Virus record (IMG/VR): IMGVR_UViG_2529293044_000014
Location: 1 to 15,111 of that record
DNA length: 15,111 bases
Source: a virus
Taxonomy: Duplodnaviria; Heunggongvirae; Uroviricota; Caudoviricetes
Reading direction: 5' to 3' (one strand)
Shown here: positions 11,901-14,900 of the stretch, in pieces
Layout of the letters: each line of letters starts with the position of its first letter
How positions within the stretch are numbered: position 1 is the stretch's first letter
Program-made: the position numbers

Positions 11901-14900
11901 TCAGGTGGAGTACCCCACCTTTTCATCAAGCCAGCCCACCCACCACTGCATCATTTCTCTGCGCTTATAGAGATACTGAGCATGGTTGTAAATTCAGCAA
12001 ACGACGCAATGTGTTTGACAAAAAATTAGCGCAAGAAGACAAAAATCACCTTGCGCTAATGCTCTGTTGTAGGTCACTAATGCTATCTAAGTAGTTGATT
12101 CATAGTGACTGCATATGTTGTGTTTTGTCGCATTTTGTAGTCTGTTATTTAACCGCAAATACTTATAAGCATGTGATTTTTAAATGATTTATATAATTTT
12201 GTCATCCTTTGGGTGAAAAAGGTTGAGTCGCAAAGCGGAATGCATCTAGCATAAAGCCTTATTATTGATGAGGCTATCATGCGCGTACTGCTATTGTTAC
12301 TACTTTCCCTTTTCATGTTATCGGCATTTTCGGCTGATAACCTGTTGCGCTGGCATGATGCACAGCATTACACGGTGCAAGCCTCTACGCCGCTAAAAGC
12401 CAAACGCGCATGGAAACTGTGCGCGCTTTATCCCAGTTTGAAAGATTCATACTGGTTATCGTTGAACTATGGTATGCAGGAGGCTGCTCGCCGCTACGGT
12501 GTGGATTTAAAAGTGCTGGAGGCAGGCGGCTACAGCCAGTTGGCTACGCAGCAAGCACAAATCGACCAGTGTAAACAGTGGGGTGCAGAGGCCATTTTGC
12601 TCGGTAGTAGCACGACGTCATTTCCCGACCTGCAAAAGCAGGTAGCAAGTCTGCCGGTGATCGAACTGGTAAATGCTATTGATGCTCCCCAGGTGAAAAG
12701 CCGCGTTGGTGTGCCGTGGTTTCAGATGGGCTATCAACCAGGGCGATATCTGGTGCAATGGAGTCACGGAAAACCACTGAACGTGCTGTTGATGCCCGGC
12801 CCCGATAACGCCGGGGGCAGTAAGGAGATGGTAGAGGGTTTTCGCGCAGCCATTGCCGGAAGCCCGGTACGTATTGTCGATATTGCGCTCGGTGATAACG
12901 ATATTGAAATCCAGCGTAACCTGTTGCAGGAGATGCTGGAACGCCATCCAGAAATCGACGTCGTTGCCGGAACGGCCATTGCGGCAGAGGCGGCAATGGG
13001 GGAAGGGCGCAACCTGAAAACGCCGCTTACCGTGGTGTCGTTTTATCTTTCACATCAGGTGTATCGCGGGTTGAAGCGGGGAAGAGTGATTATGGCAGCC
13101 AGCGATCAAATGGTCTGGCAGGGGGAACTGGCGGTTGAGCAGGCTATCAGGCAATTACAGGGGCAATCGGTGTCTGATAATGTCAGCCCACCGATTTTAG
13201 TCATGACGCCGAAAAATGCCGACCGCGAACATATCCGCCGCTCGCTGTCACCAGGGGGATTTCGTCCGGTTTATTTTTATCAGCACACATCAGCGGCTAA
13301 GAAATAACCTTCGCCATGTTGTGTCACCAGTAAATCTGCACTGAGTTTATGGCGTAAACGACGAATTAACACATCGACGGTGCGCAGGTCAGGGTTTTCC
13401 ACCCGACGCGCAGAGAGCATACGCAGCAGACGTTCACGGCTGAGAATTTCGCCGGGATTGGTCACAAACGCCACCAGCATTTCATACTCTGCGCGGGTCA
13501 GTTTAATCGGCTCTCCGTAAGCGACTCGTCAGAACCGTATTGATATTTACTGAGAGCTCAGATCAACTTTCCAGGGCAACAGATCGCGTACCCGGTTTGC
13601 CGGCCAGTCCTGGATATGTTCAATGACGTAACGCAGCCACTTTTCTGGCTCCACATTGTTCAGACGGCATGTGCCGATCAGCGAGTACAACACCGCCGCA
13701 TGTTCACCACCGCTGTCGGAACCCGCGAACATCCAGTTTTTCCGGCCTACGGCCACTCCCCGTAAGGCGTTCTCTGCGATGTTGTTGTCGATTTCCACCC
13801 AGCCATTACTGCAGTACACGTTCAGTGCATCCCACTGTTTCAGCAGGTATGCGAACGCTTTTGCCGTATCTGAGTGACGCGACAGTGTTTTCATCTGTTG
13901 CTGTATCCAGTCATACAGTGACTGCATCAGTGGCGCGGCTCTGGCTTTTCTTGCCGCCAGACGCTGTTCTGCTGAACAGCACCGGACCTCTGCCTCGATG
14001 GCATACAGTTCACCGATACGCTGCAGGGCTTCCGTGGTGATGTAGGTGGGCGCTCTTGCATGCACATCGTGGATTTTTCTCCGGGCATGAGCCATACACG
14101 CGGCTTCCGTTATTCTGCCGGATTCGTATAACGCCCGGTAACCACCGTAAGCATCGGCCTGAAGCACACCGCTGTAACCGGCCAGGTGATTTTGTGGATG
14201 GATACCTTTCCGGTCCGGACTGTACGCGAACCAGACCGCCGGGGGCATCTGTGAACCGGCGTTACGGTCATCACGGACGTAGACCCACAGCCGGGCTGTC
14301 CGGGTTTTACCGCTGCCCGGCTCCTGGACCGGGACGGGGATATCATCAGCATGGACTTTACCGGGCATCAGCACATACTGGCGCAGGACGTCATACAGCG
14401 GCTCCAGCAGTTCAGCAACAGCACCTGTCCAGCGCCCCAGTGTGGCACGGCTCAGCTCCACGCCCTGACGACGGTATATTTCTGACTGGCGGTATAACGG
14501 CAGATGGTCTGCATATTTCCCGGTGACAACATGGGCCAGAAGCCCCGCTCCGGCATAACTGCGTGCAATGGGTTTTGAAGGTACTGGTGCCTGCACGATA
14601 TGGTCGCACCGGCAACAGGCCTGTTTCGGACGTTGTGTTTCGATAACCTTAAAGGCGCTGCTGATAAGCTCCAGTTGCTCTGACACATCACATCCCAGAG
14701 AACTGAGTTCACCACCACAGGCAGGACAGCATTCCTCTTCCGGCCGGATAACCCGGGTTTCACGGGGAAGTGAGGCCGGTAACGGTTTACGGGCTGAAGA
14801 CTGGCGCAGGGCGGATGGCAGTACCGGGTCATATTGCTCACCCAGCGTTTCCGCCATTTCTTCCTGAAGTGCGCTGATTCGCTCCTGTGCTTCCTGTATC

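Follow-up and report, generated by a model that had tools for sequence, protein, structure and literature searches.

Where the effector-carrying prophage ends beside torT, and which attachment site it occupies, is the question raised by the window, the whole 15,111-nucleotide stretch analyzed here (IMG/VR record IMGVR_UViG_2529293044_000014). Comparison with characterized attachment sites showed that window 12014-12224 is almost certainly the attR (P-O-B') of a lambdoid, effector-carrying prophage inserted by the integrase Int at the HK022 attachment site between torS and torT. The attR core (C-O-B') lies at 12204-12224 and reads ATCCTTT-GGGTGAA-AAAGGTT, and the DNA to its left is AT-rich from about 12014 onward. 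HK022 attP (X51962, 186-396) aligns with window 12014-12225 over 213 bp with 87.8% identity (E 8.9e-66). The window, HK022 attP and lambda attP can be aligned with one another with no gap anywhere between the sib hairpin and the core; thus, the window keeps the exact spacing of lambda and HK022. Mapping of the GenBank lambda features through this alignment places the lambda overlap TTTATAC exactly on window 12211-12217, the 15-bp common core of lambda on 12206-12220, and the annotated Int-binding sites 'int 1' and 'int 2' on 12065-12084 and 12097-12116. An earlier reading made from the sequence only had described arm-type Int motifs at lambda spacing, in agreement with this coincidence of the lambda Int sites and overlap.

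The phage half and the bacterial half of the junction meet within the core (Table 1). The C site is identical to that of HK022 attP at all seven positions, the overlap differs from that of HK022 at one of seven, and B' and the flank beyond it are identical to those of the K-12 attB, GCACTTT AGGTGAA AAAGGTT. Collinearity between the torS-torT region of K-12 MG1655 and the window begins no earlier than 12207, where the C and B core sites have CTTT in common, and there is none in the P arm. From 12212 through the torT start codon, the window and K-12 are identical. In 30 records sampled out of 5431 matching ones, the E. coli homology starts at 12207 or 12212. The junction thus has what marks an HK022-type attR, namely a C-O-B' core, P-arm sites at the canonical distance and a bacterial flank that is collinear from the core only. 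The alignments with lambda attP, HK022 attP and the K-12 torS-torT region bear out the proposal of a lambda-type attR with an HK022-like core, whose motif lies where it had been placed and fixes the right end of the prophage at 12211-12217. That HK022 integrates between torS and torT, as stated in that proposal, agrees with Carey et al. 2019 (eLife, PMC6814406), who place the HK022 site in the short stretch separating the two genes.

A fortuitous resemblance between AT-rich intergenic DNA and att sites can be discarded as an explanation. Individual motifs do arise at random, with about 1.4 one-mismatch arm-type matches and about 0.6 matches to the integration host factor (IHF) consensus per shuffled window. 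However, the length and E value of the HK022 alignment, the gapless register with two characterized attP sites and the sharp switch to chromosomal homology at the core rule out this reading.

The P arm holds the protein-binding and hairpin elements of a lambda-type site. Its outermost element, sib/tI, is an RNase III processing site and a terminator of leftward transcription, which in the prophage state is separated from int. The 49 bp at 12016-12064 are 100% identical to both lambda and HK022, and the minus-strand RNA of sib/tI has a folding energy of -24.3 kcal/mol (z = -5.0), its stem being followed by a run of U. An Rfam scan of the window found no match in the att region and detected the RNA-OUT of IS10 alone. 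The IHF site H1 sits between the arm-type sites P1 and P2, and an H2-like IHF site with one mismatch is located at 12166-12178. Judged by position, the inner P arm should also contain the Xis and Fis sites.

The two parts of the P arm differ in their relatives. The distal arm (12016-12151) is 93.4% identical to HK022 and 92.6% to lambda, and its innermost stretch (12117-12151) is 89% and 83% identical, respectively. The core-proximal stretch (12152-12203) is 71% identical to HK022 and 48% to lambda; with the core included (12152-12217), the values are 76% and 45%. The lambda homology ends at 12151, as does that of the nleB2-nleC-nleH1-nleD prophages of O55:H7 and O157:H7 strains. The latter are the best DNA match to window 4-12151 (about 95-96%) and carry the effector block downstream of the tail-fibre genes as in the window. 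However, their homology ends inside the P arm, indicating that they have a different core module there and are not adjacent to torT. Position 12151 thus marks a mosaic breakpoint within the P arm, at which a distal arm and b-region of lambda/434 type give way to a core module of HK022 type.

These distal similarities are what would support a lambda/434-type attR, in which an Int of lambda specificity had used a secondary site close to torT. The distal P arm resembles lambda as much as HK022, and when the adjoining 165 bp on the left are included (11850-12151), the identity to phage 434 is 96.4%. The sib/tI, P1, H1 and P2 elements and their spacing to the overlap are identical in lambda/434, which uses the same mechanism, the tyrosine recombinase Int acting with IHF, Xis and Fis. 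In contrast, the core sites, the overlap and the chromosomal target are different. The lambda core GCTTT-TTTATAC-TAA is not found at the junction, where only four of seven C-site positions and one of seven overlap positions match lambda. The bacterial half is the exact HK022 attB, and the Int encoded beside the attL of the E2348/69 prophage, described below, is close to HK022 Int. Comparison of the core and overlap rules out a lambda-specificity site, and we regard this reading as hardly credible. The site is thus best described as an HK022-type attR with a lambda-like distal arm.

HK022 itself (attP and attR, X51962 and AF069308) has in common with the window sib, P1, H1, P2, the inner P arm, the C site, the position of the overlap and the bacterial partner GCACTTT-O-AAAGGTT. 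HK022 lacks the lambda-like tail genes and the type III secretion system effector genes of the window prophage, and its cargo is unrelated. Several observations weigh against the HK022-type assignment. The overlap is one base off HK022 attP and the attP of all sequenced free phages. The core-proximal 52 bp of the P arm have just the 71% identity given above, so that the site is HK022-type and not HK022 itself. The window is one whole draft contig (AIFD01000003.1, GCA_000249235.2), so that attL, int and xis are known from a proxy genome, enteropathogenic E. coli (EPEC) O127:H6 strain E2348/69. The E2348/69 prophage in turn has frameshifted tape-measure and J genes and may be defective.

The proxy is close to the window. 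Window 9696-13516 has two differences in 3821 bases from E2348/69 (NC_011601; 99.95% identity, attR and torT included), and the junction region 11800-12700 is 99.9% identical. The E2348/69 prophage at torS-torT (about 1,043,430-1,088,960) has the same gene order of J, lom, tail-fibre genes, a DUF1076 gene, nleB2, nleC, nleD and attR. The window departs from it in three ways: IS10 interrupts nleC, an IS66-family element truncates torR, and J has just ~93% identity. In E2348/69, attL reads GCACTTT-GGGTGAA-TAAGTTG (L004 13433-13453), followed by a P' arm identical to that of HK022. This attL lies 9 bp from the annotated torS start, and int and then xis come after the P' arm. The encoded Int matches HK022 Int at 345 of 357 residues (97%), and GGGTGAA is the overlap of both attL and attR. 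The predicted attL with the same 7-bp overlap beside int, near torS, is therefore present in a near-identical genome, which serves as a proxy and is not the window's own strain. The torS gene of E2348/69 (L004 10680-13423) is annotated as a frameshifted pseudogene.

An orphan junction, whose left end with attL, int and xis was lost by deletion or rearrangement so that a fossil site no longer recombines, is improbable. The left end is not on this contig, the locus is decaying, with IS10 in nleC and the IS66-family element in torR, and large torS-torT rearrangements are reported in several lysogens (PMC6814406). Against this, attL is intact in the closest complete genomes (three E2348/69 assemblies and O127:H6 LT903847), where it has the same overlap and lies beside int and xis, and every recognizable attR sub-site in the window is intact.

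An HK022-type attR at this position fits a simple integration scheme. Int-mediated site-specific recombination would have placed the prophage in the 82-bp torS-torT intergenic region through strand exchange across the 7-bp overlap at 12211-12217, leaving B' and all DNA to its right as native chromosome. Together with attL (B-O-P' beside int and xis), the attR should be a substrate for excision by Int, Xis and IHF. At the other prophage end, torS is cut off from its own promoters. Transcription from P1torS would now run to the left across attR and should end at the tI hairpin (12017-12067) of the P arm, and P2torS, which is embedded in attB, would be split by the insertion.

The bacterial side retains the complete mapped promoter of torT. 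The PtorT elements and the P1torS start were mapped by Mettert et al. 2026 (PMC13644379) and were placed on the window using the end points of the published figure (-95 at the torS ATG, +23 at the torT ATG), with an exact fit. The torT -35 element begins 6 bp downstream of the crossover, and all PtorT elements are to the right of the crossover. The divergent P1torS start, at 12241, is now directed into the prophage. The 342-residue torT open reading frame begins with an ATG 54 bp to the right of the attR core and retains 61 bp of native upstream DNA beyond the overlap, or 68 bp with the overlap included. The sequence-only reading had given the native upstream DNA of torT as only about 60 bp. 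The number is correct, but no effect of it on torT is demonstrated, since the native intergenic region is only 82 bp, the mapped promoter is whole and torT transcription is unchanged in HK022 lysogens (PMC6814406). A consensus promoter scan of 11800-12320 gave no more matches than shuffled sequence and missed the weak, mapped PtorT.

The effects on torS at this site have been described (PMC6814406). Of complete E. coli genomes, about 5% are lysogenic at the site, and every one of these prophages has an HK022-like integrase and the same attL position. With a prophage at the site, torS is transcribed from a phage promoter and the aerobic bet-hedging of torCAD (TMAO reductase) is abolished, as demonstrated for HK022 and a wild B2 strain. 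Supplementary file 1 of that study lists E2348/69 and gives 45,626 bp between torT and torS. The literature thus already covers the site, also in the sister strain E2348/69, and what a prophage there does to the host. In the window, the torR homology of E2348/69 and K-12 stops at 13516, where an IS66-family element begins (13517-15111, with a 508-residue transposase open reading frame at 13547-15073 on the minus strand, 475.9 bits); the contig ends inside this element. The torR gene is therefore truncated, with just 13280-13516 left. Provided that this insertion is real, the two-component Tor pathway would be broken in the window's strain irrespective of the prophage, and the consequence of the prophage for torS and bet-hedging is thus probably moot in this strain. 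Together, the torS frameshift of E2348/69 and the torR disruption hint that the tor regulatory genes are decaying in this prophage-carrying EPEC lineage.

The single-base overlap variant is the one small novelty of the locus and a rare natural attB allele; it does not make the site a new kind of system. The overlap is AGGTGAA in HK022 attP, mEp235, Gally and K-12 attB, in contrast to GGGTGAA in the window. Alleles were counted in 5426 complete E. coli genomes. The attR counts use at least 80% coverage, because a 41-mer also caught empty sites, C and B both ending in CTTT; the attL queries were lengthened, and the attL count for the A overlap is a lower bound, since P'-arm polymorphism loses matches. 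Empty attB sites have the A overlap in 3050 cases and the G overlap in 70, attR in 176 and 6, and attL in at least 83 (A) and in 7 (G). The seven genomes with the G overlap in attL are three E2348/69 assemblies, O127:H6 LT903847, STEC299, 382634_2f and Z1323CEC0012. Five of the seven are assigned to phylogroup B2 in Supplementary file 1 of PMC6814406, and LT827011 and Z1323CEC0012 are absent from that table. A search of IMG/VR for a GGGTGAA attP gave no matches, and the A form matched HK022 and mEp235 only. Likewise, 50,697 GenBank phage records contained no GGGTGAA attP, every best match having at least one mismatch.

In STEC299 (NZ_CP022279; L006 1-13041), an unrelated prophage occupies the torS-torT site with G in both attL and attR. 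It carries baseplate J/gp47-type tail genes and a serine acetyltransferase gene beside att. Because this prophage is morphologically unrelated, the HK022-type int/att module is common to very different phages.

Recombination in the lambda family requires overlap identity, and each product carries a heteroduplex of the two parental overlaps. An unrepaired cross between A and G sites would thus leave attL and attR with different bases. At least two independent prophages, those of E2348/69 and STEC299, have G in attL as well as in attR, which suggests that phages with a G-type attP exist or that the mismatches were repaired. It is possible, if rather doubtful, that the A-to-G change is not just a neutral SNP but marks a distinct attB/attP allele pair, with HK022-type phages that have a GGGTGAA attP in circulation and a partition of the hosts that can be lysogenized.

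The effector cargo spans 6326-11804 on the plus strand and occupies the place of the lambda b-region, with the tail-fibre genes on one side and att on the other. It comprises the DUF1076 gene, nleB2, nleC, the nleH remnant and nleD and lies where the sequence-only reading had placed the effector genes. This position matches the familiar 'exchangeable effector loci' arrangement of lambdoid prophages.

Table 1. Features of the window around attR, in the effector cargo and in the adjoining chromosome
Feature	Position	Strand	Basis or remark
J	480-3959		E2348/69 annotation via BLAST mapping
lom	3962-4561		E2348/69 annotation via BLAST mapping
Tail-fibre genes	up to about 6211		E2348/69 annotation via BLAST mapping
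DUF1076 gene (192 aa)	6326-6904	+	E2348/69 annotation transfer
nleB2	7266-8246	+	E2348/69 annotation transfer; NleB family, 697 bits
nleC, split by IS10	8279-8366 and 9705-10637	+	Annotation transfer; Peptidase_M85 on 9750-10637
nleH remnant	10708-10875	+	E2348/69 annotation transfer
IS256 remnant	between nleH remnant and nleD		E2348/69 annotation transfer
nleD, followed by sib and attR	11106-11804	+	E2348/69 annotation transfer
sib/tI hairpin, outer end of P arm	12017-12067	-	Homologous stretch marked 'sib transcription processing site' in X51962
Arm-type Int site P1, AGGTCACTAA	12071-12080	+	Invariant in window/HK022/lambda alignment; inside lambda 'int 1'
IHF site H1, AATCAACTACTTA	12088-12100	-	Sole perfect match in window to consensus WATCAANNNNTTR; invariant in lambda and HK022
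Arm-type Int site P2, CAGTCACTAT	12102-12111	-	Perfect consensus, sole perfect match in window; inside lambda 'int 2'
Inner P arm (position of Xis/Fis and H2 region)	12117-12203	+	Conserved to 12151, then diverged HK022-type
Core-type Int site C, ATCCTTT	12204-12210	+	Phage-derived; 7/7 vs HK022 attP; GCACTTT in K-12 attB
7-bp overlap, GGGTGAA	12211-12217	+	Prophage/chromosome meeting point; 6/7 vs AGGTGAA of HK022 attP and K-12 attB
Core-type Int site B', AAAGGTT	12218-12224	+	Bacterial; identical to K-12 attB; HK022 C' is TAAGTTG
PtorT	12223-12259	+	Intact on bacterial side; -35 TTGAGT 12223-12228, -10 TAGCAT 12247-12252, start T 12259
torT, first chromosomal gene right of prophage	12279-13307	+	NCBIfam TorT equivalog, 494.9 bits; annotated torT in E2348/69

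Within the cargo, a complete IS10 of 1329 bp (8367-9695) interrupts nleC, which is intact in E2348/69. It is flanked by a 9-bp target duplication, TACTCTGCT, at 8358-8366 and 9696-9704, and encodes a 402-residue transposase of the IS4 family (8380-9588, minus strand) and RNA-OUT (Rfam match at 9581-9650, 98.8 bits). The DUF1076 gene is flanked by two direct repeats of ~188 bp with ~85% identity (6094-6280 and 6983-7156, from BLAST cross-matches against E2348/69). Further to the left, the J (tail tip) region at 4-2897 is about 93% identical to E2348/69, compared with 98-99.95% for the rest of the window, which suggests that the host-range module may have been replaced by recombination.

The value of an HK022-type attR at this position lies mainly in annotation. 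The right boundary of the effector-carrying prophage is set at 12211-12217, nleB2, nleC and nleD are shown to be cargo of the phage at a b-region location, and torT keeps its entire mapped promoter. The overlap allele adds a minor point on the host range of HK022-type integration. If a distinct allele pair does exist, the overlap polymorphism would partition which hosts HK022-type phages, with their effector cargo, lysogenize efficiently.
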